From: Amphiscolops sp. MND2022
Taxonomy: Eukaryota
Direction: 5' to 3'
NCBI GenBank assembly: GCA_964187785.1
Contig: OZ076409.1
Location: forward strand, 79,362,001 to 79,426,000
Length of the DNA: 64,000 nt
The position numbers and the translations under genes were made by a program. Below are positions 2,830 through 29,308 of the stretch, one piece after another. Each line of letters opens with the position of its first letter. Position 1 is the first letter of the stretch. The notes under the pieces are model-generated. The model searched no databases, was not told the DNA's origin, and saw nothing but the letters and a program-made list of their open reading frames with translations.

Positions 2830-4643
2830 AGAAGGGAGGAAAATATCCCGGTGCTTAGCGGGCGTCTTGTTTTATATTGGTTCATAGACAAAAAGGACAG
2901 GAACTTCTGTTTTCGCACCTTCTCCTAAGTGAAACGCAATATAGTTCAGCTATAACGTTAAAAATTTGGTAATAGCGCTTTACTCCGGATATTATGTCAA
3001 AATTTCGGTTAGTACTGAAAAAATTAATTTGTGTGTATATATTGAGAAAACTTAATTTCAGACGAAAAACTAGACGTCTGAAAAAGTCTCATAGTGCCGA
3101 CAAACATAAAAGGCGAAACCCTTTGTGCTTTTTCAAACTCCTGTTTGTTGAAAAATATCAAAACAATTTGAAGGGGGACCCTTCGGCGACACAATAAATT
3201 TTCAAAGAAAATCACAGAGTGCCGAAAAAAATTGGCATGGTGACTCTTTAATCTCTTCCGGTTTTGCAAATGCACGAATAAAATTCTGGCTGAAACAAGG
3301 ACTCGAACCCGCTACCGCGGGTGCCCCTAAACCGAATAAAGTTTGTACAAAAAAGTGGTACATGCAGGGTGAGCGCTGTGTTCTGACGAAAAACACTAGC
3401 AGCTGTAAAACTGTAATCTTTTTAAAGAAAAGCGCCGACTAAAACAGTACAGTGACATTCAAAGAGACTTTGAAAAATCAAAATTTTTGTACGTTGCGTT
3501 CTTTGGTTCCACGTTTTGTTCCTTAAATTTGACGACATTTGTCAACATTATGTAACAACAAGCTGCCGCCAACATGCCGTTGTGATCGTGGAGAACCCTT
3601 GTTGAACTTGCTTGAACTTTTTATATGTTCTTTAAAGTTGCCAGCAACTTTTTCAATGATTTTCTTAGTCTCTTACGGAAACTTTAATGCGTTATTGTTT
3701 CCCTGTTGTCGTCAGCTTTTATCAAGCTGCTTGAAAGAATCATCAAGGTTTTGGCGGCAATTTCAAGTCGTAAAGTTCTGCAAATTTTATAATGCCTCAG
3801 TTCCAATTTTAAATGCAGCTGAGACAATAATAATTTTGCCATTTCAATGGAAATTAACCTCAATCACAATGTAAACAACAAACTAGCGTCAACTTCAGCG
3901 TCCTGTTTGAGAAGCGGTGATTAAATCGGATGAGTATTTGGGAAATTAATGAGTGAATACAACGTGATCGTGTCCGTAAAGAGGAGGAAAATATTTTCAA
4001 ATTTAATTGCAGTAGTGGAGAATGCAGTGTAATTCTACAAGATTTACCAACGGATGCATACTGAATTTTCTAGGTTTTATAAATAAAAATGCCTTGCATG
4101 CAGGCCTGCAGCATGTAGAAAGTTCAAGCAGTCTCAACTATGGAAGTCTAAAGCGATGGTGTTTTAATACACGGGACGGGCTCCTGTCTGCCAGTAGGTC
4201 CGTTTTGCTTCCCAATAGGTACTGTCCCGTGGAAACGGGGGTCCCGTTTCTTTGGATATCCTGCGGCCTGTCCTGTTACTGTTAAAGTCTGTTATTGGTT
4301 AAGACGACGGGCATTTTGCCTCTCCAGAAATACAGTTCCGATAGCTTCTAAAAATACCAAGTGTGATAATCCTCACCTAGGCTCTCTGCATCAGACTCTT
4401 CGTCTGAATGTATAGTTACGTCTACATCTGATTCAGCTCGAAACAAAGGCTTTGCAGGATGTCTAAGATCTTTCATTTTAGAAGCCCTAAGAGGATAATC
4501 GTCATTTTCAGAATCAGAATTTCCAATGTTTGATGCGTGAACTCCATTAGACCTATCTATTTTGGATCCCGACGGTTGCTGATCTCTGTTTTCGTTAATT
4601 TCTGACCTTGGATTTGTTGCCGTAGAAGCGCTTTTGTTAGACT
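2830..4643. repeat. Copy 2 of local duplication (runs into the real 3' LTR)
   Basis: Near-identical to 1-1814. Confidence 0.95.
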
Positions 4644-5888
4644 TTATCTCTTTTAAGATTGTTTCCAGTTTGTTTTCCATCTCTTCTCTCATTTTTCAAT
4701 TCGATCATTATTCTTTTGTTCCATAATTTGGGTCCAGGCTTGAATTTCATTACTAACTACACTGGGTTCGATCAACTGGCCCTCTGAATTGTTTTCACCT
4801 AAATTTTCTTGAACAACCGTATTAGAATTAGTTAAAGTCTCATTACCTGTAATGGGTATTCCTACTTGAGTTACTTCCACTTCTCTTTCTGGGGAAGGAG
4901 TCTCTAATCTCCTAGATCGTCTATTGCGTTTGTTTCCCATATTGCTTTGGGTGAAAATGGTTTTTGGCTTTTGGGGAAGAATTTGAATTATCTTGTCTAT
5001 TTGAAATAACAAGACACTAGAGTATCAGCAAATTACCAAAAGGTTTACAGATGTTTGAAGAAGCAACTGCACTTGTTGACAGTTCAGGATTGAATGAATT
5101 CTCCTTCAGTTTTTAGAATGAAATAGCTCCAAAAATACCATGACACTCATTTTTACTGCAATCATTATTTGGAAAAGACAAAAATAGGATTACGTCAGGG
5201 TAACGTCATTCTATTTATAGCATCAGCTGAATTGCATCACGTTCTAAGTATATTTAAGGAAAGGACAAGGGAAAACCCTGGAAATTACCTAGAATGCGAT
5301 ATAAAATACATTAAAGATGGTTTCCAAATAGCATTACTTCAGCTTCCAAAGCTATATAGAAGGTCCTGCTAAAACCGCATAATGACGAGTATACGTCACT
5401 ACACAATCCGCAGAATACCGCATAGTGTTTCTGCAAAAAAAAAACGTATAGTGACGAGTATGCGTCACTCCTCGAACTGTAGGGTGCCGCATAGTGAATC
5501 TTGACAAAAACGCATAATGACGAGTATGCGGTACTGCTCGAACCGCAGACTGACGCATAGTCGTCAGCACAAAATGGTATTTAAACTAAATTGGGCTAAA
5601 TAAGAATCAATGTTACGTAACATATTGCTCATCAACACGTGTTTCCTTTACTCTAACTCGGGTTTTATGCAATTGTTTGCTCTCAATGACATGTAAAACT
5701 AGGCCCTTTTCACATTAAATTGTACAAGTTATTTACATGACTTTCGAAAAAGAGAAAAGGCAAAATGAAAACAAATAAAACAAAATGTTTATTGTGAAAG
5801 TTTCACAGTTTTCAGACGATGGTCAGACACACTGTTCGCTTCAACTACTGTTGCTCTCCGGATCCCACGCAAGTTCTGGGTTGCGACA
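4362..5888 (-). repeat. 3' LTR (1527 bp)
   Basis: Near-identical to 27782-29308; TG/CA termini; TSD adjacent. No convincing polypurine tract immediately upstream. Confidence 0.93.
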
Positions 5889-6882
5889 GTCCTGCATTTT
5901 TGAACGTGAACAGGGCTGCCTCAAATCCATCGATGAAAGCTCGTGACCTTACATTGCGATCTCTCACAGTTTCCGCTTCATACGCTGTTGCGAGGAGGTA
6001 CTCCCCGAGAATCTCCAACCCGATTTGATCATACGTCCTGCCACACCAGTCGCAAAAACCAGCGATGTTGGGCATCACAGTGGGGGACAGGCGATATGCG
6101 TCTCTCTCTCTGGGGGGCAACAACAGGAAACTTGTACTGTGGCTAGTTTGTACTGTAAATCCATAGCGTGCTTGTTGTTGGGCATGCAAACCTCCTGGGC
6201 TGGCTATGAAATTGGGTGCGTTCTGTGGAATTTGGATCATCATTGGGACGACGTTCTGCTGTAGTGGCATACTAATAAAAGGAAAATTTGGGTTGGCAAT
6301 AATTGGTCTGTTTTGATAGACACTGTTCCCAGAACCAGGATTCACTGGTTGTACTTCCTGTATGTCATTTCTTGTTAGGTCAAAGTTGCTCGTTTGAGGC
6401 AAGTAACCAGGTGGGTATGTCGGCACAGGACAGGTAACCGTTCCTCTGCCCCTACCAAGACCCCTTGGAGTCGGTAAAATTGAGGCGGTCGGACGGCCAT
6501 AGCTATTCGCAGGCATGCTTCCACTCATTTCCAGTTCATCTGGGGACTCTGGGGATTCTTCGAATTCTGTATCTATAAACGATGGTGGCGAGACTGAACC
6601 ATTGCTCGAGTGTTCCTCCACCAGTTCCATCAGTTGTCTTTCGATCTGTGATCCATCAGTATCAATGACCTCCTCAGTTTGGTAGGGAATCGAAAAGGAG
6701 GGAAACAGTGTTGCGGCGGCTGCGCCCACAAAGGCTGACATGGCATCTGAGGAAGGGCCTCCCACTCGGAATCTCTCGTCCAGAGCTTGAACATTTCCTG
6801 GATCCACCATAAACTCTTCCCCGGACTCACTGGAAACGTCGATAACTGAGGGCGAAGAGATCTCGTCTATGTTGGTTTGCAT
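5845..6882 (-). CDS. Accessory ORF-A, 345 aa, unknown function, at the env position but not env-like
   Basis: Uninterrupted ATG ORF ending 44 nt inside the 3' LTR; acidic, Ser/Pro-rich N-terminus; C-terminal CDWC motif and helical-looking segment; no evident signal peptide or TM helix. Confidence 0.7.
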   Translation of the reverse strand: MQTNIDEISSPSVIDVSSESGEEFMVDPGNVQALDERFRVGGPSSDAMSAFVGAAAATLFPSFSIPYQTEEVIDTDGSQIERQLMELVEEHSSNGSVSPPSFIDTEFEESPESPDELEMSGSMPANSYGRPTASILPTPRGLGRGRGTVTCPVPTYPPGYLPQTSNFDLTRNDIQEVQPVNPGSGNSVYQNRPIIANPNFPFISMPLQQNVVPMMIQIPQNAPNFIASPGGLHAQQQARYGFTVQTSHSTSFLLLPPRERDAYRLSPTVMPNIAGFCDWCGRTYDQIGLEILGEYLLATAYEAETVRDRNVRSRAFIDGFEAALFTFKNAGLSQPRTCVGSGEQQ

Positions 6883-7724
6883 TCTTTTGTTTTATTGTTG
6901 GGTTCTACTGTAGTGTATTTTTTAGAGAAAGTTCTCACAAACTTATTTGGAGTGAAAGAGCTGCTGAATGTGAATTGAATTGAAAACCATATGGTGATCT
7001 CTCTTCTCTTTCCTTCTGACTTTGGAGGAAAACCCGCGGAAAAATTGCCTGTCATGTTCTGATCCTTTAACTTCCCTTATAAGGGTTTTATAGAGGATAG
7101 GTTTTCGGGTTTCATCCATAATAAGTTGTAAACAATTTCCATAAAAGGTGTTTCAGTTAACGCTCCAACGGATCATCAGTCATCATCAAAGCTTACAGTT
7201 TTCCTCTGATATTCAAATGATATATAAACAAATTCATCCTAACTTCAAAGTAACTAGCTAAGAAATATTTTCATGGAAGTATTCATTTAAACAGTTCAGA
7301 ATTAAATATATTTAATCCTTCATGACTAGGTAAACATGAAAATAGAAAATATTAACGTGAATGTTTCATTTCAAGTTCAGATTATTACAGGATCAAAGTT
7401 TATTTTTAAGGAAAAACATAGTTTAATCTCGGTCCTGCATTTTGAAAAATGCAACAGGGTTAGCAATAGTGCAAATAAGTTTACATGTTTATTGGTAAAT
7501 CCATTTAGGAAAACTTGCAAAGGGTACCAGCAGTCTAGACTTTTGAAAACATATTAAAATCAAAAGAGCATCAGTGTCGTATTCACACGTTAATAGTATC
7601 ACATGTGTTTTGTCATTAAGAATATGTAGTTTCTTCGTCATATTGCATAATACCATTCATTCATACGCTTCTAATCATTGACAATATTAATCCACTCCTT
7701 TGGAATGCATACAGCGAAAACTGC

Positions 7725-7870
7725 AGGATGCCGAGTATGCGTCATTACTCGATCCGCATACTGCCGCATAGTCCTTGCCTGCAATTCCGCATACTGCCGC
7801 ATACTCGTCACTGCAATTCCGCATACTGCCGTATACTCGCTGTTAGTCGATCCGCATACTGCCGTATGCT
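7725..7870. repeat. 32-33-bp tandem array (CCGCATACTGCCG core) between divergent accessory genes
   Basis: Core starts at 7754, 7787, 7819, 7852; second copy at +8926. Confidence 0.9.
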
Positions 7871-8236
7871 CTAGCATATAAACCATTCCAATTTGGTTCG
7901 TATTAGCGTATTTGCATGTATTCTCTCATCCAGAATCCACAATGAGTCAATCAATCACGCTGGCGGACGAAATTGACATTTAATTAACCAATCAGATTAT
8001 AGTATTCTCTTGCACATTTGCGCAAACTTGCATCATTTGCTCTTTGCCTTCTTTTACGCCACGCCTTCTTACGTATATTGCATTTTCAGTCAACTTATTG
8101 TTAATTTCCTTGTTTAGTCTTTAGTCGTAGTTCACACATACAGAAGCAGTTCATCCATATCTTCCCCGACTTCCTTACATAACATTTCCAGCAGGAAAAT
8201 TTCAAATTCGCATAATTTCATTACTCTTTTGGGATA

Positions 8237-11200
8237 ATGGATTCTACACCTGGCGGGTCAGGTTCTTCAGGCAAACGAAGATCCAGAAAAGATCAATCGC
8301 CACATCACCGCGACGACTTTTGGAGTGATTTACCTCTCAATCCGATGTCCGGTAAGCTCAACTCATTTGTTTTGATTTGGTTCATTTTGATTCAGATTTG
8401 AGACTTTTTGGTTTTTTGCAAAGCTGGCCAGGCTTGCAACTTGAAAATGGCTAGCGAAAATGTCTAGTCCAAATTCGGGTTTTTTGAAACGTTTCCGCTT
8501 CGAACTTCTAAGCTACTTCCGTTCTACTTTCATTTCCTGTCCCCGCGTCCGGTTTCAGGCATTTTCAAACGTGTTTCGCTTGCTAGATCAGATCCACTTC
8601 CTTCTTTCATTAGGTAATAGATCATTGTTTTAGTTGAACTCTGGACTTCTCGGACTTCACCAGAAAAATCGCCTCACAAAACTGCCGCCACTTCAGAAAA
8701 ATCTCCTTCTGTAAAGACGCCTGACAAAGTGTTTACCCCACTAGGAGTAGCTTCGCCTAGAACAGCCAGTCTCCAAGTTCCCTTTGTGTCTCCTAGTGCT
8801 CAACCTCTCAGCATTGACGAGGGTATAGAATTAGTAACTACCCCTGCATCTGTGAATCGTGAAGAGAACTGCTCAGCACAGGAACCCAAACAGAGAGCTG
8901 AATTACACTCCCCAGATAGACGCTTCAATCTTGGTGAAACAGCTGCAACTACCCCCACCACTAACATGGGCGATTTTAATCCAGTATTACAGCATGACTT
9001 TACCGGGACTTATCCTGCCCCCTAAATTGCCCAGGCTTCTCCTTTCCAACTCGGGCAGTATTTGACTCCAACTTTACTTGATGACGCTACGGGGGAAAAT
9101 CCCACTCTACTCGATGACCCCGCCAATCATGAGATTGGAAATCTTGGACTTCAAGAAACCACCCGCACTGCTCCTACTGAAGGGGACTTTACTGGCGTTG
9201 CCTATCCCAGCCTTAACGTCACTCGGCAGGAGATTCTGACACTAAGTAGTGTCTTAGAACGAATCCCACAGAACTTCATGTCCGGCGAAGGGGTAGATGC
9301 TAATCAGCCCTTATCGCTAACTGTCGTGGATCACACTCTGGATCCTACACTCCTAGCTACATCAAGTCAGGAAGACCTTCCCGGACCCTCATCGTCCAGA
9401 CCTCTGTCATCTGAAGGGCATGAAAGGCAACAGACAACACATGGCAAGAGGAGGAGACCTAGGTACTCACTGACAGTCAGTATGCTCAGGAAACATCCAG
9501 TACTTAAATTTTCCGCAACCGGTCCTCTGGATGCTGAGAAAACACCTTACAAGTGGTGGTGTAGAGTATGTAGGACGGAACTATCGCTGATGAGCCGGGG
9601 ACCGTTGGAATTAATTTCGCATTACCGTTCAGACACTCATTTGACGAAAGAACACCGAATTCGCATGGAAATTCCTGGCACCCCACTGTTTGACAAGGAT
9701 GGGAAGGAAATTCTAGGGATTGCCCTTCAGGAAGCAAAGAAGGTGGCTAGAGACTCCCACCCAATTGCTCCCCAATTGGACTCACGTCATCCTTTGGTCG
9801 GCCAATCTGCTGTACCTGCACTAGGAGTCGTATCTAGTCCGACCGACAAAGTCCTCTTTCAAATCGCCGTCTTGGAACATGGACTCAGACATGGGGGTCA
9901 CATTAAGAGCCTCACAGGGATCTACGAGGAATTGTCTCGACTGATGTCCAATGACCAATCGACCACCCAAAATTGGAGTGAGGAACGAGTGTTTGTAAGT
10001 ACTTTTCTCTACCTTGCTGATCTTAGTTAGCATTCCCTTACTAGGTTGTTATTCATGCTATGTTTTTTCAACAGGGAATTCTCGTGTACATGTTCAGAGA
10101 ATTGATGAACTACTGCGTTACCATGACCACTTCTTCTGGGGCATATTCACTAGCAGTACAGCATTCACCAACCCATTCCTTTGTGATTTTATCATTCTGG
10201 TCGGGGAATGTCTTTCACCGTGTCTGCTTAGGCAGTTCTCCTCGAGGACTATTACTCCCCCGGAGGATTCTTAATTTGATTGCCTCTTTCCTCAGCCTTT
10301 TTGACGTTCCCCCTTCGTGTATTGCACTTATTGGGGTTGGAGACAAGTTAGATGATTGCTTGTCAAACACTTTATCAGGCTCAAAAAGACCATGTATTGT
10401 CAATACTTATGGGACTACCGACCTCGAAGTTAGTTTAACACTGCCGACAGTCCAAATAATTGAACGTCACGATTTTCGCACAATTTTGGACTTACTCCTC
10501 ATGAAATTGAGGACTGCACTTGACCGTGACTGGTTGCAGAGCTTGCCTACCCTTCATAAGGTATTTCTCACTCTTGGCTGTTTTCAATTTTGTTTCACAC
10601 AATCTTAAAGTCTCTCGTTTCAGTGTGTAATTCGCCTCGAGTACTCATTAGATGAAGCATCAGTTATCATTGAAGAATTGTCAAACCATTGGGATCGTGT
10701 TCGGGAGCATTTGAACCAGGTAGCAAGACTCCCAGTATACCGATTCCACATGAGAGAGGTTATTACACTTCCCAATAATCCCATTTCTTTGGAATTACTT
10801 TGTTACTCAATATATTTTCTCTTATTTCAGTCGAACACTCTCGACGAATGTTTCCGCTTGGATACAGCCTATTTAGCCAGACTCTTCATCATCAGATGCG
10901 TGTTAGACCACTGTTAGTTGCTCCACATCTTCTGATAAAGTATTGTAGTATCATTTGTTACCGGTTTTTAAATTTTCTGTTCAATCATTTTGTAATTCGT
11001 GCCTTCCCGTTTCGAAATAGGAGCCGTGAGGTCGTAATTTATCCATTCTTCCAGTCGTTTACTGTAGCACATGCATTTGCTTTCAATTTTGTAACAATGA
11101 TGAATAGTCATCGTATCTCCATTCGCATATTTGCGTATAATCATTTGTATATGCCAAAGGTAGTAGCATATAATCGTCACTGCTATTTCCGCATAGTGAC

Positions 11201-12644
11201 GCATAGTCGTCACACCTCGATCCGCATGGTGACGTATAGTCGTCATACCTTGATCCGCATGGTGACGTATAGTCGTCATACCTTGATCCGCATAATGCCG
11301 CATAGTTAATTCCTTTCAATCCGTATAATGGCGAGTATTCATTGCGCTTCAATCCGCATAATGCCGTATAGTTCCCGTATGATATTCCGTATAGTGTAGA
11401 TATTTACTATACGTTTGCTCTCGTTTCATAGTACTATGCAGCATATGAAATTGATTCAGACATAGCTGATCAATTAGTGCTGTTTTTGTGTTGTTTGTCC
11501 AAACGTGTTGGTGCAATAATATATTCCGAACAAATGTGTTCCATTACGTAGATTTTGGTATGTTTTAGATAATTCGGCCTTTTCGGAAGTACAGAAGCGC
11601 ATTGAAGGCGGATTTCGTTTGTACAATCAATTTGCCGTCTTCATATACAGTCAATTACAAAGTATACTACCCGATAGTGTGCTAGGGAGTATTTCCGATT
11701 GGGACAGATATCTCACTATTGATCTCGACCAAACTGAGCTTCCTTACAAGACGTCTAGTGAATTTATTTTGAATGAAGACTTCCACAAGTTGGTTTTGGC
11801 AAGTAGGTTACCCCGTCCGGGGAAATTTGTGGACCAATCGATCGCCTTTTGTAAGGCTTTTTGCAAGTTACTGCTGTGCCACGATGTCATAAAGTCGGAC
11901 TTAATCAGGGGGTTGTCAGCTTTTGACTCCAGTGTTATGATCGAGGGTCCCGAGGAACACTATTCCAGTGCAATTGAGAAGCTGTCGTCTTACTTTTCTA
12001 GTGCCGGGTGGATTTCAAGCAGCGATAAAGTAAAGATCATTAGTCAGTATCGTTCCTTTGTTACTAAACTCCGTGCTGGATCAATACCAGAATACGAAGA
12101 TTGGGTACATTTTTTGTCGTCTCATTATGAGATCCGGTGTCGTCCAGAGTTGCTTCAGCTTTATAAGTACTCTTGCTTATGCTTGCCTCCTCTTATCGAA
12201 ATGTCTCCAGAATTCACTGTTCCAGTTCTACGTTTAGAAGGTAATACTGAGTCCTTTCAGTCATGCTTGCGGAGTTTACAGGCTTCCAATTTAACTGTCC
12301 CACACGTATCAAGTCTGTATCGTGATCCAAAATCTATCCCTCGAGTCTTCCGGCTTCTGGGACGTGGTGAGGATCTACTTACCGACAAGAAATTTTCCGT
12401 ATGGAATTTCCTTAAAGGAAGTAGCCCGCGTCGAGCAGCGTTACTGGGAAAATTCGAGACTGGCTACAGGAAAGCCGGTTTACGAACCGAGAAGCCACCT
12501 ATAACTTCAAGCAGTACAACACCTAGTGTTAGTCGGCACAGCAGTGTAAATAGTTCGCCGTCCCCTGACCCTTCACTAAGCAGAGTTAGCCTGGAAGTTC
12601 CTCGCTGTGGAGACCTGGAAGCTGGAGGAGCATCAAAAAAATGA
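8237..12644 (+). pseudogene. Six-exon antisense gene, copy 1 (~1084 aa; C2H2/BED-like zinc finger; possibly hAT-transposase-derived); one premature stop
   Basis: Exons 8237-8351, 8634-9994, 10075-10560, 10624-10758, 10831-10912, 11569-12644. All introns are GT..AG with compatible phases (1,0,0,0,1), 3255 nt in total. Motif WWCRVC-x15-HYRSDTH. TAA at 9023-9025 is CAA in copy 2. Confidence 0.8.
11189..11390. repeat. 33-bp tandem array within intron 5 of the antisense gene
   Basis: CCGCAT/CCGTAT units start at 11189, 11222, 11255, 11288, 11321, 11354; second copy at +8926. Confidence 0.9.
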
Positions 12645-12862
12645 AGAGTAAGTCTGGAAAAGACAAGAAGACGAATTGAGAGTGTTCTCGCTTGACTTTG
12701 GATCTGTGTATTACTAGTTTGTTTTGTTTGTTTCGGAAGCCTTATTCTATCCGACTATTTACTCATTTAGTTGTATCTTCTTTGAATGAACTGATAATTC
12801 GTCTAGTTACGAACTGAAAAGACAGGAAAGAGATAAGAGAACGATTCTTCTGTGTGTGTTTT

Positions 12863-13722: not shown

Positions 13723-14814
13723 TTTCACCTAAATTTTCTTGCCAACCGTATTAGAATTAGTTAAAGTCTCATTACCTGTAATGGGTATTCCTACTTGAGT
13801 TACTTCCACTTCTCTTTCTGGGGAAGGAGTCTCTAATCTCCTAGATCGTCTATTGCGTTTGTTTCCCATATTGCTTTGGGTGAAAATGGTTTTTGGCTTT
13901 TGGGGAAGAATTTGAATTATCTTGTCTATTTGAAATAACAAGACACTAGAGTATCAGCAAATTACCAAAAGGTTTACAGATGTTTGAAGAAGCAACTGCA
14001 CTTGTTGACAGTTCAGGATTGAATGAATTCTCCTTCAGTTTTCAGAATGAAATAGCTCCAAAAATACCATGACACTCATTTTTACTGCAATCATTTTTTG
14101 GAAAAGACAAAAATAGGATTACGTCAGGGTAACGTCATTCTATTTATAGCATCAGCTGAATTGCATCACGTTCTAAGTATATTTAAGGAAAGGACTAGGG
14201 AAAACCCTGGAAATTACCTAGAATGCGATATAAAATACAATTAAGATGGTTTCCAAATAGCATTACTTCAGCTTCCAAAGCTATATAAAAGGTCCTGCTA
14301 AAACCGCATAATGACGAGTATACGTCACTACACAATCCGCAGAATACCGCATAGTGTTTCTGCAAAAAAACGTATAGTGACGAGTATGCGTCACTCCTCG
14401 AACTGTAGGGTGCCGCATAGTGAATCTTGACAAAAACGCATAATGACGAGTATGCGGTACTGCTCGAACCGCAGACTACCGCATAGTCGTCAGCACAAAG
14501 TGGTATTTAAACTAAATTGGGCTAAATAAGAATCAATGTTACGTAACATATTGCTCATCAACACGTGTTTCCTTTACTCTAACTCGGGTTTTATGCAATT
14601 GTTTGCTCTCAATGACATGTAAAACTAGGCCCTTTTCACATTAAATTGTACAAGTTATTTACATGACTTTCGAAAAAGAGAAAAGGCAAAATGAAAACAA
14701 ATAAAACAAAATGTTTATTGTGAAAGTTTCACAGTTTTCAGACGATGGTCAGACACACTGTTCGCTTCAACTACTGTTGCTCTCCGGATCCCACGCAAGT
14801 TCTGGGTTGCGACA
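13723..14814 (-). repeat. Internal partial LTR (lacks ~430 bp of the LTR 3' end)
   Basis: Matches 4793-5888. Confidence 0.9.
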
Positions 14815-17162: not shown

Positions 17163-20100
17163 ATGGATTCTACACCTGGCGGGTCAGGTTCTTCAGGCAA
17201 ACGAAGATCCAGAAAAGATCAATCGCCACATCACCGCGACGACTTTTGGAGTGATTTACCTCTCAATCCGATGTCCGGTAAGCTCAACTCATTTGTTTTG
17301 ATTTGGTTCATTTTGATTCAGATTTGAGACTTTTTGGTTTTTTGCAAAGCTGGCCAGGCTTGCAACTTGAAAATGGCTAGCGAAAATGTCTAGTCCAAAT
17401 TCGGGTTTTTTGAAACGTTTCCGCTTCGAACTTCTAAGCTACTTCCGTTCTACTTTCATTTCCTGTCCCCGCGTCCGGTTTCAGGCATTTTCAAACGTGT
17501 TTCGCTTGCTAGATCAGATCCACTTCCTTCTTTCATTAGGTAATAGATCATTGTTTTAGTTGAACTCTGGACTTCTCGGACTTCACCAGAAAAATCGCCT
17601 CACAAAACTGCCGCCACTTCAGAAAAATCTCCTTCTGTAAAGACGCCTGACAAAGTGTTTACCCCACTAGGAGTAGCTTCGCCTAGAACAGCCAGTCTCC
17701 AAGTTCCCTTTGTGTCTCCTAGTGCTCAACCTCTCAGCATTGACGAGGGTATAGAATTAGTAACTACCCCTGCATCTGTGAATCGTGAAGAGAACTGCTC
17801 AGCACAGGAACCCAAACAGAGAGCTGAATTACACTCCCCAGATAGACGCTTCAATCTTGGTGAAACAGCTGCAACTACCCCCACCACTAACATGGGCGAT
17901 TTTAATCCAGTATTTCAGCATGACTTTACCGGGACTTATCCTGCCCCCCAAATTGCCCAGGCTTCTCCTTTCCAACTCGGGCAGTATTTGACTCCAACTT
18001 TACTTGATGACGCTACGGGGGAAAATCCCACTCTACTCGATGACCCCGCCAATTATGAGATTGGAAATCTTGGACTTCAAGAAACCACCCGCACTGCTCC
18101 TACTGAAGGGGACTTTACTGGCGTTGCCTATCCCAGCCTTAACGTCACTCGGCAGGAGATTCTGACACTAAGTAGTGTCTTAGAACGAATCCCACAGAAC
18201 TTCATGTCCGGCGAAGGGGTAGATGCTAATCAGCCCTTATCGCTAACTGTCGTGGATCACACTCTGGATCCTACACTCCTAGCTACATCAAGTCAGGAAG
18301 ACCTTCCCGGACCCTCATCGTCCAGACCTCTGTCATCTGAAGGGCATGAAAGGCTACAGACAACACATGGCAAGAGGAGGAGACCTAGGTACTCACTGAC
18401 AGTCAGTATGCTCAGGAAACATCCAGTACTTAAATTTTCCGCAACCGGTCCTCTGGATGCTGAGAAAACACCTTAAAAGTGGTGGTGTAGAGTATGTAGG
18501 ACGGAACTATCGCTGATGAGCCGGGGACCGTTGGAATTAATTTCGCATTACCGTTCAGACACTCATTTGACGAAAGAACACCGAATTCGCATGGAAATTC
18601 CTGGCACCCCACTGTTTGACAAGGATGGGAAAGAAATTCTAGGGATTGCCCTTCAGGAAGCAAAGAAGGTGGCTAGAGACTCCCACCCAATTGCTCCCCA
18701 ATTGGACTCACGTCATCCTTTGGTCGGCCAATCTGCTGTACCTGCACTAGGAGTCGTATCTAGTCCGACCGACAAAGTCCTCTTTCAAATCGCCGTCTTG
18801 GAACATGGACTCAGACATGGGGGTCACATTAAGAGCCTCACAGGGATCTACGAGGAATTGTCTCGACTGATGTCCAATGACCAATCGACCACCCAAAATT
18901 GGAGTGAGCAACGAGTGTTTGTAAGTACTTTTCTCTACCTTGCTGATCTTAGTTAGCATTCCCTTACTAGGTTGTTATTCATGCTATGTTTTTTCAACAG
19001 GGAATTCTCGTGTACATGTTCAGAGAATTGATGAACTACTGCGTTACCATGACCACTTCTTCTGGGGCATATTCACTAGCAGTACCGCATTCACCAACCC
19101 ATTCCTTTGTGATTTTATCATTCTGGTCGGGGAATGTCTTTCACCGTGTCTGCTTAGGCAGTTCTCCTCGAGGACTATTACTCCCCCGGAGGATTCTTAA
19201 TTTGGTTGCCTCTTTCCTCAGCCTTTTTGACGTTCCCCCTTCGTGTATTGCACTTATTGGGGTTGGAGACAAGTTAGATGATTGCTTGTCAAACACTTTA
19301 TCAGGCTCAAAAAGACCATGTATTGTCAATACTTATGGGACTACCGACCTCGAAGTTAGTTTAACACTGCCGACAGTCCAAATAATTGAACGTCACGATT
19401 TTCGCACAATTTTGGACTTTCTCCTCATGAAATTGAGGACTGCACTTGACCGTGACTGGTTGCAGAGCTTGCCTACCCTTCATAAGGTATTTCTCACTCC
19501 TGGCTGTTTTCAATTTTGTTTCACACAATCTTAAAGTCTCTCGTTTCAGTGTGTAATTCGCCTCGAGTACTCATTAGATGAAGCATCAGTTATCATTGAA
19601 GAATTGTCAAACCATTGGGATCGTGTTCGGGAGCATTTGAACCAGGTAGCAAGACTCCCAGTATACCGATTCCGCATGAGAGAGGTTATTACACTTCCCA
19701 ATAATCCCATTTCTTTGGAATTACTTTGTTACTCAATATATTTTCTCTTATTTCAGCCGAACACTCTCGACGAATGTTTCCGCTTGGATACAGCCTATTT
19801 AGCCTGACTCTTCATCATCAGATGCGTGTTAGACCACTGTTAGTTGCTCCACATCTTCTGATAAAGTATTGTAGTATCATTTGTTACCGGTTTTTAAATT
19901 TTCTGTTCAATCATTTTGTAATTCGTGCCTTCCCGTTTCGAAATAGGAGCCGTGAGGTCGTCATTTATCCATTCTTCCAGTCGTTTACTGTAGCACATGC
20001 ATGTGCTTTCAATTTTGTAACAATGATGAATAGTCATCGTATCTCCATTCGCATATTTGCGTATAATCATTTGTATATGCCTAAGGTAGTAGCATATAAT

Positions 20101-21576
20101 CGTCACTGCTATTTCCGCATAGTGACGCATAGTCGTCGCACCTCGATCCGCATGGTGACGTATAGTCGTCATACCTTGATCTGCATGGTGACGTATAGTC
20201 GTCATACCTTGATCCGCATAATGCCGCATAGTTAATTCCTTTCAATCCGTATAATGGCGAGTATTCATTGCGCTTCAATCCGCATAATGCCGTATAGTTC
20301 CCGTATGATATTCCGTATAGTGTAGATATTTACTATACGTTTGCTCTCGTTTCATAGTACTATGCAGCATATGAAATTGATTCAGACATAGCTGATCAAT
20401 TAGTGCTGTTTTTGTGTTGTTTGTCCAAACGTGTTGGTGCAATAATATATTCCGAACAAATGTGTTCCATTACGTAGATTTTGGTATGTTTCAGATAATT
20501 CGGCCTTTTCGGAAGTACAGAAGCGCATTGAAGGCGGATTTCGTTTGTACAATCAATTTGCCGTCTTCATATACAGTCAATTACAAAGTATACTACCCGA
20601 TAGTGTGCTAGGGAGTATTTCCGATTGGGACAGATATCTCACTATTGATCTCGACCAAACTGAGCTTCCTTACAAGACGTCTAGTGAATTTATTTTGAAT
20701 GAAGACTTCCACAAGTTGGTTTTGGCAAGTAGGTTACCCCGTCCGGGGAAATTTGTGGACCAATCGATCGCCTTTTGTAAGGCTTTTTGCAAGTTACTGC
20801 TGTGCCACGATGTCATAAAGTCGGACTTAATCAGGGGGTTGTCAGCTTTTGACTCCAGTGTTATGATCGAGGGTCCCGAGGAACACTATTCCAGTGCAAT
20901 TGAGAAGCTGTCGTCTTACTTTTCTAGTGCCGGGTGGATTTCAAGCAGCGATAAAGTAAAGATCATTAGTCAGTATCGTTCCTTTGTTACTAAACTCCGT
21001 GCTGGACCAATACCAGAATACGAAGATTGGGTACATTTTTTGTCGTCTCATTATGAGATCCGGTGTCGTCCAGAGTTGCTTCAGCTTTATTAGTACTCTT
21101 GCTTATGCTTGCCTCCTCTTATCGAAATGTCTCCAGAATTCACTGTTCCAGTTCTACGTTTAGAAGGTAATACTGAGTCCTTTCAGTCATGCTTGCGGAG
21201 TTTACAGGCTTCCTATTTAACTGTCCCACACGTATCAAGTCTGTATCGTGATCCAAAATCTATCCCTCGAGTCTTCCGGCTTCTGGGACGTGGTGAGGAT
21301 CTACTTACCGACAAGAAATTTTCCGTATGGAATTTCCTTAAAGGAAGTAGCCCGCGTCGAGCAGCGTTACTGGGAAAATTCGAGACTGGCTACAGGAAAG
21401 CCGTTTTACGAACCGAGAAGCCACCCATAACTTCAAGCAGTACAACACCTAGTGTTAGTCGGCACAGCAGTGTAAATAGTTCGCCGTCCCCTGACCCTTC
21501 ACTAAGCAGAGTTAGCCTGGAAGTTCCTCGCTGTGGAGACCTGGAAGCTGGAGGAGCATCAAAAAATGAAGAGTAA
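17163..21576 (+). pseudogene. Six-exon antisense gene, copy 2
   Basis: Offset +8926: exons 17163-17277, 17560-18920, 19001-19486, 19550-19684, 19757-19838, 20495-21576. Stops at 18474, 19805 and 21091 are sense codons in copy 1. Confidence 0.8.
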
Positions 21577-21787
21577 GTCTGGAAAAGACAAGAAGACGAA
21601 TTGAGAGTGTTCTCGCTTGACTTTGGATCTGTGTATTACTAGTTTGTTTTGTTTGTTTCGGAAGCCTTATTCTATCCGACTATTTACTCATTTAGTTGTA
21701 TCTTCTTTGAATGAACTGATAATTCGTCTAGTTACGAACTGAAAAGACAGGAAAGAGATAAGAGAACGATTCTTCTGTGTGTGTTTT

Positions 21788-24700
21788 TTAGTATCTGTAA
21801 GAGTCAGAGTAGTTTGGGTTGGGATTGGGGCGTAAGTTGTATTTTTCACCACGAGTATTTATGGGTTCTTCTTGCAATGGGGTATTTTGTGAATTTTCTA
21901 GGGTTTTTTGGGTATCATCAACCGATGAATTATTTGGTTCTTTTTGAGTTTTTTGGGTATTTTGATCATCTTCACTGATGTGTTGTGGAATTTCATTTTC
22001 ATGATTGTCGCAATTTTGATCTGGTTCAGTGGTCTGTTCCACTGGGCTCCCCCCACTATTTTTTGAAGATCCTGGGGAGGGAGGGTGGTTATCATTAGGT
22101 ATTTGGATTGGAGTATATTCGGTTTCCTCAGTGTCTTCTGAGTATTCTGAAGGACCATCTTCAAACGGATTAGATCCAAAATTTGTATTCCATGATTGGG
22201 CATATAGATCATCATTTGCTATAGGCATCTGGTCATCTTTTTGCCAATCAGTTTCGCGGACAAAAATATTTGCTAATGGAGCTTGCGGAGTGAATTTTCG
22301 CAGGCGTATCCTGTGTAGCAGTTGCGTTTTGTTAGTACCAAGTCTCCTGACAATATAATTATTGTTAGGGAGCACTTTTTCCACTTTATATGGACCACAC
22401 CATCTGAATTCTCGAAATGGTATTTTCGTCGCTTGCGTGTCGGCTTTTGGGTTGAGAATGTAGCAATAGTCCGTCGTTTCGAGCGGTGCTGCTTTGGCTT
22501 TCCTATCATAGTAGGCTTTGTACTTGAGATAGGATTGCATGATATTTTTCTTTGTTTGATCTAAAAGGATTTTCATGCGTTTTTGTTATTTCTTCTGCCA
22601 CATCTGCCTGTGGTTGATATTGTGGGTTAGGGTTATATCCGAGTTTATAGTCTAGGATATTATGTGGTATTCTGCCATGGAAGACTCGTGAAGGTTCACA
22701 ACCGAGTGATGCATGGTATGATGTGTTAACGGTTAAGGACTGCTAACGGGAGATATTTATGCCAGTTATTCCTGAATTCGCCTGTTGCAGCTTTTAGGTG
22801 TGTTTTCACTGAGGCATGGGTTCTCTCGAGGAGTCCTATTGTTTGGGCATGTTTCATTGTTGCGTGTTTAAGTTCAATTCCCAGCACTGCAGCAACTTCG
22901 TGAGTTACTTGAGCGTTGAATTGAGTGCCTAAATCTGTGATTATCGTTGTTGGAAGGTAGGTGTGCTTGCATAGTATATCCATGATGACTCTTGATACTG
23001 CTGTGGCGGTAATACGAGTCACGGGATAAGCAAACAAGTATCTCGAGAAGACATCTATTGCTGTGATGATGTGATCATAACCTCCGCTAGAGGGGAGGTT
23101 TGGTAGAATATCCATCTGTAGAATGTCTTCCGGGCCAAGATCCCATTCTGGGCAATTAAGAAGTTCGGTTCTGAGGAGATCGTTGTTGATACGTTTCGTT
23201 TGAATGCAGACTTGGCAGTTACTGACCCATTTTTTAATGTATTTAGCCATACATGGGTAGTAATATTTTTGTCTTGCTTCCTGAATCATTTTCGTGATTC
23301 CTGGGTGGTTTGAATTATGGCCATGAAGGGCTTGTAAGAGTTCATCTAAAAGTTGAACCGGTAGGAGAATCTGGTAGTGAGATGTGGTTCCTGTGTCCGT
23401 ATAGTATTTTCGGGTGAAAACTTCTTGTTTAATTTCTATTCTTGTTATGTTTTGTAGGTAGTGTTGGTATCTGTAGTCTGATGCCAACTCATTCTCGTCG
23501 AAGGGGTTGCCTTCGATTTTTGCTCTCAGGTTTCTGAGGACTACGTCATTATTCTGCTCGAGGCGGATTTTGGCATTGTCCTTGAAGTATCCTGATGAAA
23601 TAGAGATTAATCCTGAGGTGGGTTTGTGAAATTATTGTAGTTCAGCGACCTCATTTTCGTGGTCGTTGTGTGTTTCAGTTTGAGCTTGATTTCGGATATT
23701 TTGTTTTTCTTCCCAAAGTTGGGTTTCGTCGATTTCATCATCTGGGAGAACATAGATTTGTTCTTCTTCAGCGATGCCTGTTGATTGGATATTCACTTCA
23801 ATTGCTTTTGTGTGAATATCATTACGAATATTCATTTCAAGTTTTTCTGCTGGGTCGACTTCTGTTCTAGATAAGAAGTCTGCTGCGGTATTCATCGAGC
23901 CAGCAACATGGGCGATTACAAAATTGTATTGCAGGACATAATCGCATGCATTCCATAGTGCTGGAGGAATCATTTTTGTTTGGAAAAATCTAGTTAATGA
24001 TCGATTGTCTGTGAAGACTATGACTGGGAAGGTGGTTCCCCACAAGAGGTGGCCAAATTCCACGAATGCAAAATATATGGAAAGAAATTCTTTCGCATAT
24101 ATTGACATTTTCGTTTGAGTTGGATTAAAAGTTTTTGAACCGAATGCGATGGGTGCATAGGTTTTACGTTTGGATTGCAGTTTTTGGTTTGGGTCGTCTT
24201 CTATCATTATTGCGTATCCTGTTGCCATAAAACTGGCATCGGACATGACTATCAATTGTTTGTCTTTCAGGGGTTGCTTTAGTGCCAATTGACAAGAGTT
24301 TTCGAGTAGTTTGTTGAGGTTTGTGAAATCTTCTACCAAGTTTGTTGGTACGTAAAATTTGGATGTTTCTTTAAGTAGTTTAAAGAAAGGAGAAAGTCGT
24401 TCTGAAAGGCTTGGAATATAGTTGCGATAGTAGTTTAAAAATCCGATATATCTCTGCAACGCCTTCTTTGATTTTGGAAAGCGAAGTTTTGAGAGGAAGT
24501 CTTTCACTTTGTCGGCTTGTGGGGCGACTCCATGGGGAGTTATTGTGCGACCCAAGAAATCAACTTGTTTGACTCCGAAATGACATTTCGACATGGAAAG
24601 TTTCAATCCCGCATTGCGGATGCATTCGAAGACTGTTCTGATGTTTGTGCACAATTGTTTTGTGTCATTCGCTGCTATGCCAATGTCGTCTACATATTGG

Positions 24701-26679
24701 GCACATTGGTCTGCTTTTATTGCCTTGTCCAGGTATTCTCTCATGAAGCTTGAGAATGCAGAGAGTGATCTGCTGAGGCCCTGGGCGAGACGACGGTATG
24801 CAAATGTTCTGCTTGCAAAATTAAAAGCTAGCATCTGAATTGATTGGTAGTCTGCCATTTGTAGGCAGTGGTAAGCCTGGGAGCAATCTAGTTTGCAGAA
24901 AAGCTTTTTTCCTGCCATGTGTTGAGCTGCATCCGACAAAGTGCTTACCGGGTGATTATTATTGGTATAATCTTCAGTTATTAAGTTATTGATTTTCCTT
25001 AGGTCAACAAGGAGCCTAAGGCGCCCATTGGGTTTGCGTTGTGCAAATATGGGAGTCGCGTATTTAGAGAAGGGTAGAGTTGTGATAATCCCATATTTGT
25101 GGAGAAGTGCAAGTTCTACCGTGATGTCATCCTTTAAGTTATTCGGCGTTGGTAGGCTTTGGCTATAAGCAGGTCTGTCATCATTTGGTGTAAGTTTTAT
25201 TTTGAATTCACGATTTATGCCAATATCGAAACGATGTCTGGCAAAAATGTCATGGAATTCAATGAGGATTTCTTCAATTTCCTGTTGTTCTTCATGGTTG
25301 AGTGTCGTATCAGACCAGTCGAAGTTCGACAGGAAAGCTTTTCGAGAAGATTCGTTGTCATGTGGATTCAATTTCTCGAGTTCTTTTAGTTCGAGAAGTT
25401 CATTGTAAATTCTTTGCTGAATTGGGGTGTAGGTAGCTGGGTCACCTGGTTCTTCAGGTGTTGGGAACCAGTATGTTTCGTGGTCAGTATTTGGTTGGGG
25501 GACCTTTAGCAATTCATTTATGTAGACCTCTGTTGTCTCTTCATATTGTATCATGAAAGATAGCAACGCTGGGTCTACCGGTTGGATGTGTTTAATTTGT
25601 TCTGGAGTTAGTATCTTGAAATCCGCTAAATGGGTATCAAGGGTTATTGTATATGGGAGTTCGGAGAAATTGATGATTTGATATCCGATAGCATTGTTAG
25701 TGACAGTGCTGAGTGATGATGTGATAAATATGCTATCGTGGTTTTCAAATTGTTGTGATGGTGTGACAATTCCTGTCGCATCATGATCCATCAGATGAGG
25801 CATTTTGCTTGCTATGGCAAGTGTTTCCCCTGGTTGTAGGGTATAGGTATTTTCGGCAAACAATGGTGTTGCTTGGCGTATTGCTGTTTGTGTATCAGGC
25901 TTGAGCTGCATCGAGAGGTAGGGAAAAGTTAAGATGCCTTGATTGACATCAAAAATTGCATTGTTCCTTCTGAGGAAACACAATCCGATGAGTGGGTTTG
26001 GTAGGTTTTTCATGACGATGAAATTTTCCCTCAACATGAAGTCAGCCACTTCAAATTCAAGTAATACAGTACCAATTGGAACTTCCAGTTGTCCATTAGC
26101 CACCATAATTTGGAAGTTTGGTGGGGGACCAGTTTCTTTTATAGCTTCACTTGCTAGGAGTTTGATTTTGTTGAGGTCTTGTTCAGAGATTGCGCTTGTA
26201 AGCGCTCCTGTATCGATAAGACCATCAAGCGTAAGTTTTTCGAAATCCATTGGTATGTAGTACATATGGCGTTTTCTCTTCAATGTCAAGGAGGTTGAGA
26301 TTGGAAGGTATGACAAGTTCCGTTCCTTGTCGAATTGTATATGTTCAGAGAGATCTTCATCTAAAAGTGGTTGTTTTTCTTCATTGCAAGAAGGTTTTAT
26401 TATAACATGATTTTTTGGAGTGTGGTGAATTTCTGGAGTTGGGTCACTTTTGGGATGGGTTGGTTGTTGTGGAAAGTAGTTCTCTGGTGCATCGTGCAAA
26501 AGTTCGTATAAGTCTTCAGTTTGAGTTTCTAGAGTCGATTGCTGCGAATTTTGTGTCGTTAGTTCAGTTTCGCAAACTGCTGTTTTTGTGGGTTTTGGGC
26601 TCAGCGGATGCTGCCAGTCATCTGCTAAGTTTTGTTTTTGTGGTGATTTTGTGTAGAGGCGTGGCGTTTCTAGTTTAAA
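21788..26679 (-). pseudogene. pol: Pol polyprotein (protease, RT, RNase H, integrase) with one nonsense codon and two frameshifts
   Basis: LIDTGA protease; LDCSQAYH and QYVDD RT; MSDAS..KEF..TDN RNase H; H-H-C-C and QMD..TDLG..LERTH integrase; GPY. In-frame TAA at 23632; frameshifts near 22730 and 22587. Confidence 0.93.
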
Positions 26680-28361
26680 TCCTTCGACGAGGATTGTTGT
26701 TGTCGTTCCATTCTTGGTTTGATTGGTTTTTTAGCTTGTTTATAGTTTTCGATCACCTTTTTCTGGGCTTCTGTGAGAGTCCATTTAGGTGGTCTATTTT
26801 CCATGTTTGCGCCAAAGTAGCAATTTTCTTCATCATGTCCCGGTGTATTGCAATTTTGGCATTTTTCAGCATCTGGGTCTTCCTCAAGTTTACGTCGTTT
26901 GGCTAATTTGGGGCATTCAGCCATCATGTGGCCTGTATCTTTGCAGTAACGGCATTGATCATTTTTGAGGGTTTTATTCGGTACTGTTTTTGGTGTTTGT
27001 GTTTTGGCTTTTTCATTTTGTTTTTTGTTGGTTTTTTCAGCGTTTTGTTCTTTTTTCGTGGCCGTCATCTGGGTTTTCACCAGGGGTTCATCAGCTTCCA
27101 AACCATTTAGCTCCATCTCTCTTTCGAGATGTTTGACGATTTGATCGTATGTTCCATTTTCAAGGTATGCTTGATTAATGGACTTTTTAAGGTGGGGAGG
27201 CATTTTAGCGTAGAGTAGGTTTTCTATCATCTGATATGCATTCTCGCCGAACGCTTTTTCAGCACTCTCTTGGAGTTCCTCTAAAAAATCTGGAAGTTTC
27301 TGGTGTTCTGGGTCAAATGCAAGTCTATTGAATCTGTGCTTAGCTGAGGCACTAGATTCCGGCTTGACATACTTTCTGCGAAAGACTTTTAGGATGTCTT
27401 CCAAAGTCGTTGTTGGGGTTCGTTGGATATTTTTAAACGTTTTGATTGCCAAACCTCTGAGATGTGCATGGAAATGGTTGATTTTCATTTCCTCAGTTAG
27501 GTTTGGTTGCATTTTTAGGGTTGTATGGAACAAGTCTTCAAAGTATTCAAATTTCTCATTTTTCTCATTTTTTCCATTGAAAGTCAATGTGTTTTTCGGA
27601 TGAAACAGTGATGGTTCTGTGTTTTTGTTAGCTAATCGTTCAATTGCAAGTGCAATTTGATTGACTGGGTCAAGTGGTTTTGTTGTTAAATTTGGCAGAT
27701 TTTGGTCTGCGTGGAATCCTGCCGTGTCATTTAGTTTTTGTGAACTTTGTCTATGGAGTTGTCGGTTGGCTCCTGTCACCATGTGATAATCCTCACCTAG
27801 GCTCTCTGCATCAGACTCTTCGTCTGAATGTATAGTTACGTCTACATCTGATTCAGCTCGAAACAAAGGCTTTGCAGGATGTCTAAGATCTTTCGTTTTA
27901 GAAGCCCTAAGAGGATAATCGTCATTTTCAGAATCAGAATTTCCAATGTTTGATGCGTGAACTCCATTAGACCTATCTATTTTGGATCCCGACGGTTGCT
28001 GATCTCTGTTTTCGTTAATTTCTGACCTTGGATTTGTTGCCGTAGAAGCGCTTTTGTTAGACTTTATCTCTTTTAAGATTGTTTCCAGTTTGTTTTCCAT
28101 CTCTTCTCTCATTTTTTCAATTCGATCATTATTCTTTTGTTCCATAATTTGGGTCCAGGCTTGAATTTCATTACTAACTACACTGGGTTCGATCAACTGG
28201 CCCTCTGAATTTTTTTCACCTAAATTTTCTTGAACAACCGTATTAGAATTAGTTAAAGTCTCATTACCTGTAATGGGTATTCCTACTTGAGTTACTTCCA
28301 CTTCTCTTTCTGGGGAAGGAGTTTCTAATCTCCTAGATCGTCTATTGCGTTTGTTTCCCAT
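26670..28361 (-). CDS. gag: Gag with two CCHC zinc knuckles and an N-terminal extension encoded in the 5' LTR
   Basis: Open from ATG 28361 (MGNKRNRRSRR); capsid-like region; CRYCKDTGHMMAEC and CQNCNTPGHDEENC. An alternative ATG overlaps the LTR/PBS junction. Confidence 0.88.
   Translation of the reverse strand: MGNKRNRRSRRLETPSPEREVEVTQVGIPITGNETLTNSNTVVQENLGEKNSEGQLIEPSVVSNEIQAWTQIMEQKNNDRIEKMREEMENKLETILKEIKSNKSASTATNPRSEINENRDQQPSGSKIDRSNGVHASNIGNSDSENDDYPLRASKTKDLRHPAKPLFRAESDVDVTIHSDEESDAESLGEDYHMVTGANRQLHRQSSQKLNDTAGFHADQNLPNLTTKPLDPVNQIALAIERLANKNTEPSLFHPKNTLTFNGKNEKNEKFEYFEDLFHTTLKMQPNLTEEMKINHFHAHLRGLAIKTFKNIQRTPTTTLEDILKVFRRKYVKPESSASAKHRFNRLAFDPEHQKLPDFLEELQESAEKAFGENAYQMIENLLYAKMPPHLKKSINQAYLENGTYDQIVKHLEREMELNGLEADEPLVKTQMTATKKEQNAEKTNKKQNEKAKTQTPKTVPNKTLKNDQCRYCKDTGHMMAECPKLAKRRKLEEDPDAEKCQNCNTPGHDEENCYFGANMENRPPKWTLTEAQKKVIENYKQAKKPIKPRMERQQQSSSKDLN
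26673..26679 (-). other. -1 ribosomal frameshift slippery heptamer T TTA AAC
   Basis: Gag ends GAT TTA AAC TAG; the -1 frame is open from there (LETPRLY...) into the pol ORF at 26499. Confidence 0.85.
27770..27781 (-). promoter_or_regulatory. Primer-binding site TGGTGACAGGAG (tRNA-Leu-like, tentative)
   Basis: TGG start immediately after the LTR-terminal CA; resembles TGGTGTCAGGAG Leu-type PBS with one mismatch. Confidence 0.75.
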
Positions 28362-29308
28362 ATTGCTTTGGGTGGAAATGGCTTTTGGCTTTTGGGGAAG
28401 AATTTGAATTATCTTGTCTATTTGAAATAACAAGACACTAGAGTATCAGCAAATTACCAAAAGGTTTACAGATGTTTGAAGAAGCAACTGCACTTGTTGA
28501 CAGTTCAGGATTGAATGAATTCTCCTTCAGTTTTTAGAATGAAATAGCTCCAAAAATACCATGACACTCATTTTTACTGCAATCATTATTTGGAAAAGAC
28601 AAAAATAGGATTACGTCAGGGTAACGTCATTCTATTTATAGCATCAGCTGAATTGCATCACGTTCTAAGTATATTTAAGGAAAGGACTAGGGAAAACCCT
28701 GGAAATTACCTAGAATGCGATATAAAATACAATTAAGATGGTTTCCAAATAGCATTACTTCAGCTTCCAAAGCTATATAGAAGGTCCTGCTAAAACCGCA
28801 TAATGACGAGTATACGTCACTACACAATCCGCAGAATACCGCATAGTGTTTCTGCAAAAAAAAACGTATAGTGACGAGTATGCGTCACTCCTCGAACTGT
28901 AGGGTGCCGCATAGTGAATCTTGACAAAAACGCATAATGACGAGTATGCGGTACTGCTCGAACCGCAGACTACCGCATAGTCGTCAGCACAAAATGGTAT
29001 TTAAACTAAATTGGGCTAAATAAGAATCAATGTTACGTAACATATTGCTCATCAACACGTGTTTCCTTTACTCTAACTCGGGTTTTATGCAATTGTTTGC
29101 TCTCAATGACATGTAAAACTAGGCCCTTTTCACATTAAATTGTACAAGTTATTTACATGACTTTCGAAAAAGAGAAAAGGCAAAATGAAAACAAATAAAA
29201 CAAAATGTTTATTGTGAAAGTTTCACAGTTTTCAGACGATGGTCAGACACACTGTTCGCTTCAACTACTGTTGCTCTCCGGATCCCACGCAAGTTCTGGG
29301 TTGCGACA
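27782..29308 (-). repeat. 5' LTR (1527 bp), with candidate TATA box TATAAATA at 28633-28640 and motif array ~28795-28990
   Basis: Matches the 3' LTR; followed by the PBS; TSD adjacent. Confidence 0.93.

Follow-up and report, generated by a model that had tools for sequence, protein, structure and literature searches.

Do two genes that lie head to head inside a retrotransposon form one module, read from a single promoter, or two adjoining units, and what might such genes do for the element? The question arises from a 64,000-nt stretch of the Amphiscolops sp. MND2022 genome (assembly GCA_964187785.1, contig OZ076409.1, positions 79,362,001 to 79,426,000; hereafter the window, whose full-length coordinates are used throughout), which carries on its minus strand a Ty3/gypsy element with a predicted spliced gene running antisense to it and a sense open reading frame (ORF), ORF-A, between pol and the 3′ long terminal repeat (LTR). 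The first-pass annotation of this stretch proposed that an internal bidirectional promoter drives the two genes as an accessory module independently of the LTR. Here we report that the two-gene cassette is supported as a fixed and selected part of the family to which this element belongs and that, judged by its conserved blocks and gene trees, it is two modules placed back to back, not one bidirectional unit; to this anatomy of two genes and two promoters, combined with a regulatory role through DNA binding, we assign a probability of roughly 0.5.

Architecture of the element and distribution of the cassette

Along the element, the LTR, gag and pol are followed by the antisense gene, 1354 bp of intergenic DNA, and ORF-A, which finishes within the 3′ LTR:

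27782..29308, minus strand: 5′ LTR, 1527 bp, with an array of motifs, the LTR promoter region and gag codons 1–193
26670..28361, minus strand: gag, 563 aa, starting inside the LTR, with a Ty3 capsid-like domain and a CCHC knuckle
21788..26730, minus strand: pol (protease, reverse transcriptase (RT), RNase H and integrase), in three pieces in this copy
8237..12644, plus strand: antisense accessory gene, six predicted exons, about 1085–1090 aa; second copy from 17163
5845..6882, minus strand: ORF-A, 345 aa, overlapping the 3′ LTR by its last 44 nt; a further copy, with a stop, at 14774-15808
4362..5888, minus strand: 3′ LTR

The Ty3/gypsy hallmarks are present: a pair of LTRs (99.2% identical, with TG...CA termini), a 5-bp target duplication (CCAAG, at 4357-4361 and 29309-29313), and gag followed by protease, RT, RNase H and integrase in that order. 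The first-pass annotation had described the same gene order in an element of ~16 kb, with a spliced antisense gene converging on the end of pol across a gap of ~200 bp, and with ~1.35 kb of intergenic DNA between head-to-head start codons placed around a motif array and a CCAAT-like site near 7988. This description was borne out: with an internal tandem duplication collapsed the element measures about 16.0 kb, and unduplicated sister copies about 16,030 bp; the convergent stop codons are about 220 bp apart; the ATGs at 6882 and 8237 enclose both the array (7736-7858) and the CCAAT; and the comparison of copies predicted six exons.

Were the cassette peculiar to this copy, other full-length copies would lack it, which was not what we found. 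In an unbiased sample of 20 copies, drawn from 150 RT matches and chosen by RT alone, the antisense gene, an antisense additional ORF of the type termed aORF-3R, was present in every copy, and ORF-A in 19. The genome search for the same layout that the first-pass annotation had called for recovered it family-wide. Among copies picked by the antisense gene, ORF-A stood head to head with it in 10/10 divergent copies and then in 19/20, and both genes had this arrangement in all eight copies from a distant clade, also picked by the antisense gene, whose last antisense exon is about 44% identical. RT was 92–100% identical across elements, while identity of the last antisense exon dropped to 43%. 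This exon returned 6896 places in the 1.07-Gb genome, which are candidates and not copy numbers (122 scored, 64–100% identity, mostly open), so that the family would make up a major part of the genome; ORF-A returned 4365 candidates genome-wide (117 scored, 48–100% identity).

Exon structure of the antisense gene and selection on it

8237-8351, 8634-9994, 10075-10560, 10624-10758, 10831-10912 and 11569-12644, plus strand: predicted antisense exons 1 to 6

The antisense ATG and all ten GT/AG splice dinucleotides were retained in 15/15 aligned copies, in each of which exons 4 and 5 measured 135 and 82 nt, while the intron between them varied from 69 to 109 nt. A five-exon model was rejected on finding a 72-nt in-frame intron concealed within its 'exon 4'. 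In the distant clade, four of the eight tested splice sites aligned in 6/6 copies, and exons 4 and 5 were present in 8/8. Three of the 15 copies were free of stops in all antisense exons, the others showing decay typical of old insertions; in the present copy both units of the tandem duplication carry in-frame stops (at 9023-9025 in the first-unit gene). Across the conserved parts of the gene, the median proportion of synonymous differences (pS) was 0.73–0.86, which is saturated, against 0.20–0.27 for nonsynonymous differences (pN), and by this measure the antisense gene is under purifying selection. Being on the other strand from the genomic (packaged) RNA, its introns would outlast retrotransposition.

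Promoter-like blocks and modular exchange

7941..8070, plus strand: antisense promoter-like block, with sites at 7943, at 7988 (CCAAT), at about 8034 (TCATTT) and at about 8058
6983..7142, minus strand: ORF-A promoter-like block, with CCATATGG, CCCGCGG with A/T flanks, and CC(A/T)6GG at 7074-7083

An alignment of 24 non-redundant intergenic regions out of 44 resolved two clusters of conserved blocks, 910–1359 bp apart, with fixed spacing within each. In the antisense block we take the sites at 7943, about 8034 and about 8058 to be AP-1-like, initiator-like and a GC box, and in the ORF-A block we presume a CArG- or TATA-like element at CC(A/T)6GG as well as a forkhead-like site. The antisense block lies 170–300 nt upstream of the antisense gene and the ORF-A block 100–260 nt upstream of its ATG. 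CCAAT was found in 43/44 regions (7.0 expected from shuffles), the initiator-like site in 36/44, and CC(A/T)6GG, 167–254 nt from the ATG, in 43/44 (1.0 expected from shuffles), although these shuffle controls overstate independence because the copies are related. The spacing of about 77 nt between CCAAT and the GC box was kept in 6/6 distant copies. Expression of the accessory genes independently of the LTR thus seems likely from the promoter-like DNA.

The two genes also part company in evolution. Compared with this copy, one subfamily is 96–100% identical from about 7950 to the end of integrase and 40–70% identical to the left, so that its antisense gene shows 97–100% identity and its ORF-A 41–42% protein identity. 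With the breakpoint at about 7900-7950, the antisense gene moves with the CCAAT block and ORF-A is left behind. In trees of 19 elements from this genome (of 29, those 10 in which one of the four markers was missing were left out), ORF-A and the antisense gene conflicted in three of seven supported splits, and approximately unbiased (AU) tests rejected the tree of each accessory gene on the data of the other (p = 2e-5 and 2e-37), from which it follows that they are not one co-inherited module. ORF-A and gag-marker trees showed zero supported conflict, yet the AU test separated them; the gag marker had been extracted with an off-frame query, and although its DNA is homologous this tree is to be treated with care. 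The accessory module of the first-pass annotation therefore gave way to two genes that swap independently, and of its internal bidirectional promoter the conserved promoter-like DNA between the genes was upheld, the single promoter not. Since the genes are shuffled so freely, we do not assume a tight complex between their products.

Domains and probable ancestry of the antisense protein

9545..9660, plus strand: zinc finger, C-x2-C-x16-H-x5-H, nearly invariant, preceded by basic KRRRPR at about 9447; predicted DNA-binding
11569..12300, plus strand: helical domain, best fold match residues 368-609 of the Hermes hAT transposase

The predicted protein consists of a variable low-complexity N-terminus, a basic stretch, the C2H2 finger, a conserved middle, the helical domain and a basic tail. 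We liken the finger to the BED type, although it has no Pfam match, and by eye we take exon 3 to be a putative RNase H part. The hypothesis of a hAT origin was stated before the fold was compared. A structure model of the last exon built from 115 sequences reached a predicted local distance difference test score (pLDDT) of 83, against 36 for a single-sequence model, and among 48,161 chains Hermes (PDB 8edg) ranked first, with 180 residues aligned, 9% identity, a root-mean-square deviation of 6.4 and a Z of 5.2, a modest value about twice that of most other matches; a Z below 8 may reflect a common helical arrangement, and rank 2 (Z 4.6) is formally tied.

Like Hermes, the antisense protein would combine an N-terminal zinc finger, a predicted alpha/beta part and the helical domain; unlike Hermes, it has 110 extra C-terminal residues and lacks an ER after the aligned LP. 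The true hAT transposases of this genome carry P-x-L...L..P...ER.[FW]S where the antisense protein has RPELLQLYKYSCLCLPP with no ER following, and the hATC domain and terminal inverted repeats of active hAT elements are missing too (no inverted match exceeds 10 nt). The catalytic motifs seem to have been lost, and the gene is probably of hAT ancestry.

ORF-A

ORF-A is built of an acidic N-terminus (net charge −23 over the first 125 residues) with a VIDVSS motif, a variable middle and a conserved C-terminal domain with CxxC. Of 53 full-length homologues, 42 have [VI][VI]D[IVL][ST] and 51 CxxC; we presume that the former, VIDVSS included, resembles SUMO-interaction motifs. No membrane segment was found (maximum 19-residue hydropathy 1.5; one of the 53 homologues reaches 1.6), Pfam was blank in 60 homologues, and the best 120 of 136 matches, all unnamed ENA records, included no named homologue. 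An env gene was accordingly rejected for want of a hydrophobic or membrane segment and of a Pfam match, and so was a spliced LTR product, since there is no evident acceptor nearby and ORF-A has its own ATG in an A-rich context in 43 of the 46 elements shown (two others lack the anchor motif and one is out of frame). Tentatively, ORF-A may act on SUMO-dependent silencing as a separate nuclear factor, or be an acidic activator.

Motif arrays and short non-autonomous relatives

7736..7858, plus strand: intergenic CG[CT]ATA array, 8 motifs, 32–33-bp period
11190..11413, plus strand: intron 5 array, 11 motifs, 33-bp period
5376..5559, plus strand: LTR array, 9 motifs, 66-bp period; also at 14305-14485 and 28797-28979

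Within the window, CG[CT]ATA clusters are confined to this element, mostly in one orientation and in variable copy number. Genome-wide, a two-motif pattern occurred 636 times against 0 in the control, and the first 30 array loci (13 places) all belonged to this clade. Where this copy has its array in intron 5, the distant clade has it in intron 3, which is the long intron there, so an array within an intron seems to have originated or relocated twice.

Five of seven further array places are short elements (L141-L145), measuring about 3.9 kb if neither LTR is truncated. Their 1.3-kb LTRs reach 99.8% identity, and they have a primer site and, in at least two, target duplications. Their arrays are expanded to 13–17 motifs per LTR. 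They have no accessory gene and retain a gag piece, the 3′ end of pol and the end of ORF-A (for example L142 2396-6306 and L145 5745-9598). The retained pol end hints at a cis signal there, and the coexistence of rich arrays with the lack of an accessory gene implies a cis role for the arrays and a trans role for the proteins, if these are needed.

A possible mechanism and its alternatives

We regard the element as a real and unusual gypsy variant, and its regulation, as set out here from sequence, as a bold conjecture. The LTR would drive gag and pol and two internal promoters the accessory genes, their transcription being predicted; a catalytically dead, hAT-derived zinc-finger protein would bind CCGCATA arrays beside the LTR promoter, beside the antisense promoter and in the antisense intron, and the promoters would be held open, as by VANC in VANDAL elements (PMC5735166) and as has been proposed for dead transposases (bioRxiv 10.64898/2026.08.24.746577). 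That the antisense protein binds the arrays and activates, or counters silencing, in trans falls somewhat short of an even chance. The fullest version is doubtful: a retrotransposon would have tamed a DNA-transposon enzyme into an intron-bearing, swappable, array-reading anti-silencing factor, paired it with a SUMO-binding factor and been parasitised by short array-amplifying elements, which would make this the first VANC-like counter-defence in an animal retrotransposon.

Besides the modest fold match and the relatedness of the copies, several observations weigh against this account. The structure model covers the last exon and not the putative RNase H part; Hermes was absent among the best 50 of 240 Foldseek candidates; profile tests against 30 in-genome hAT loci did no better than reversed controls; and Pfam gave zero matches to the antisense exons scanned. 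CC(A/T)6GG was seen in the intergenic DNA of only three of six distant copies, and one of the seven further array places (L146) matched no element protein. Across subfamilies the protein diverges and the core motif is nearly unchanged, a pattern equally compatible with a host factor, and co-diversification of motif and protein was not seen within the near clade.

Other searches were also negative: PDB sequence searches returned no match, DUF4371 was matched nowhere, atlas searches gave no usable match, a metagenome scan gave one locus, a chance match in bacterial-looking DNA, and longer homologues of the last antisense exon were not found, which is a weak test. At L146, positions 3055-3241 hold a 10-motif array with no element-protein match within 9.5 kb, either a solo LTR remnant or an unrelated site.

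The main rival, which we consider the less probable course though a serious one, is that a host factor binds the arrays as enhancers while the antisense protein acts elsewhere, for example by tethering or steering the integration complex or by compacting the DNA of the element. Beyond the near-constancy of the motif, it draws on TGACG half-sites in the array units, which we take to resemble bZIP sites, and on the swapped segment, which comprises the antisense gene and the integrase end of pol. What speaks for the antisense protein as the array-binding factor is that the arrays are dense, uniform in orientation, variable in copy number, confined to the clade and re-made in a different intron, as in the VANC pattern. 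A single bidirectional promoter around the array and the CCAAT box, driving both genes as one module, is improbable: bidirectional promoters often contain CCAAT and GC boxes, the head-to-head order holds in all intact copies examined and the array between the genes could serve both, but roughly 1 kb separates the two blocks, each of which keeps a constant spacing to its own gene, and the 7900-7950 breakpoint falls between them, with a shared tree rejected. It is very improbable that the antisense gene is a passively carried nested hAT transposon or not transposase-derived, for although the sequence tests for hAT ancestry failed and the fold Z is modest, passive carriage is ruled out: pS is saturated and pN low, the splice sites are kept, the gene is in 20/20 RT-picked copies and there is no terminal inverted repeat; a non-hAT origin as such is possible.

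Comparison with known systems

The closest layouts, as far as the accessible parts of the cited sources go, are in plants. The gypsy elements Retand, Grande and RIRE2 have antisense ORFs between pol and the 3′ LTR (PMC11963269; PMC7264820) and share with the present element a long region there and a conserved antisense ORF for a predicted DNA-binding nuclear protein; gene23 of Grande has its own promoter, and about half of the plant elements have tandem arrays, with occasional sense ORFs that lack membrane segments. Here, by contrast, the element belongs to an animal, its antisense gene comprises six exons and encodes about 1085–1090 aa (introns are unmentioned in the accessible part of PMC11963269), a C2H2 finger and Hermes-like fold take the place of TRP28, a head-to-head partner is fixed, and the motif is arrayed at three sites. 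The exons scanned yielded no domain in Pfam, TRP28 (PF04195), which marks the Retand lineage, included.

VANC binds tandem motifs of a single orientation that occur in introns, between genes and in terminal regions (PMC5735166); transposases that have lost catalytic activity regulate in a sequence-specific manner (bioRxiv 10.64898/2026.08.24.746577). With VANC and its VANDAL elements the present family shares an element-encoded accessory protein and dense same-orientation arrays in non-coding parts that gain and lose units, and with TnpA and the dead-transposase regulators the loss of catalytic residues as a path to a regulator. It differs in that the VANC and TnpA systems are plant DNA transposons in which binding and demethylation have been shown, whereas both are predicted here from sequence, and in that, unlike in VANC, the motif does not diversify between subfamilies; the accessible part of the preprint leaves retrotransposons unmentioned. 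Among animal LTR elements, Oikopleura Tor3b/4b has a third sense ORF from an internal promoter, as proposed here for ORF-A, but the Tor ORF encodes a membrane Env whereas ORF-A is devoid of hydrophobic segments, and Tor has no antisense gene in the accessible text (PMC4402516). The first-pass comparison with complex retroviruses is thus an analogy only, since antisense genes with their own promoters are known in Grande and Retand and internal promoters in Tor; a complex-retrovirus or errantivirus env with signal and membrane segments was not found in ORF-A. A literature search, outside Repbase reports and subscription journals, returned no report of an animal gypsy element with an antisense gene that bears introns and derives from a transposase.

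How animal transposons escape host silencing is largely open; sequence-specific counter-defence encoded by the element itself has been documented in DNA transposons of plants. In this clade the question becomes testable in an animal: it supplies a candidate protein and a candidate site, and the mosaic subfamilies and the array-rich non-autonomous elements serve as natural controls. If the mechanism holds, one class of mobile element would have domesticated the enzyme of another, and spliced genes would have a route to persist in retroelements.

gag, pol and the primer-binding site

27764..27781, minus strand: primer-binding site, beginning TGG, within the gag frame; conserved

The gag start codon lies 580 nt within the 5′ LTR and its frame runs through the primer site; since the start and 193 codons fall within the LTR (27782-28361), every 3′ LTR holds the N-terminal frame of gag, and the primer site is coding. 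Both this start and the ORF-A end within the LTR are kept across the clade. Although pol is broken in this copy, sister-copy frames are open at about 1646 aa. In a phmmer search the RT–RNase H region (23635-25401) matched 7ksf/7kse (E = 1e-33), presumably of the foamy-virus type, above the Ty3 RT (E = 2e-27). The stretch preceding the 3′ LTR is conserved and purine-rich, with the purines interrupted. A tRNA-like 3′ end matching nine bases of the primer site occurred 879 times against 0 in the control, and ARAGORN called a tRNA at 0/3 loci; most of these matches appear to fall within a long tandem array (G000:C8:35,587,000 onward; period about 296 bp) whose tRNA-like 3′ end is complementary to the element's primer site.

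Tandem duplication in this copy

13723..22649: second unit of an 8.9-kb tandem duplication (first unit 4793-13722), private to this copy

The duplication was missing from 10/10 close copies, nine of them about 16 kb long. Its units differ by 0.58%, with 50 of 52 differences private to one unit, and share 13 sites against four sister copies; together these indicate that it arose from this single insertion. By these counts it would be about as old as the start of LTR divergence. The units could also be two haplotypes assembled in tandem, which it would take reads to exclude. In further copies (L037/L038, L049, L153/L154) part of the antisense gene is likewise tandemly duplicated within the element. 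A second local duplication in the window (1-1814 and 2830-4643, 99.6%) spans host flank and the end of the 3′ LTR, and is for that reason later than the insertion, or an assembly effect.

Neighbouring features

At 53284-61618 lies a different gypsy element, whose pol in other copies runs about 1100 aa beyond integrase; its open frames approach 2770 aa, with 6074 candidates, and the extension is without a Pfam match. A third gypsy element, at 30691-42592, has 214-bp LTR-like repeats and nested decayed pol pieces, and a fragment of a rhodopsin-family G-protein-coupled receptor is found at 46635-47279.

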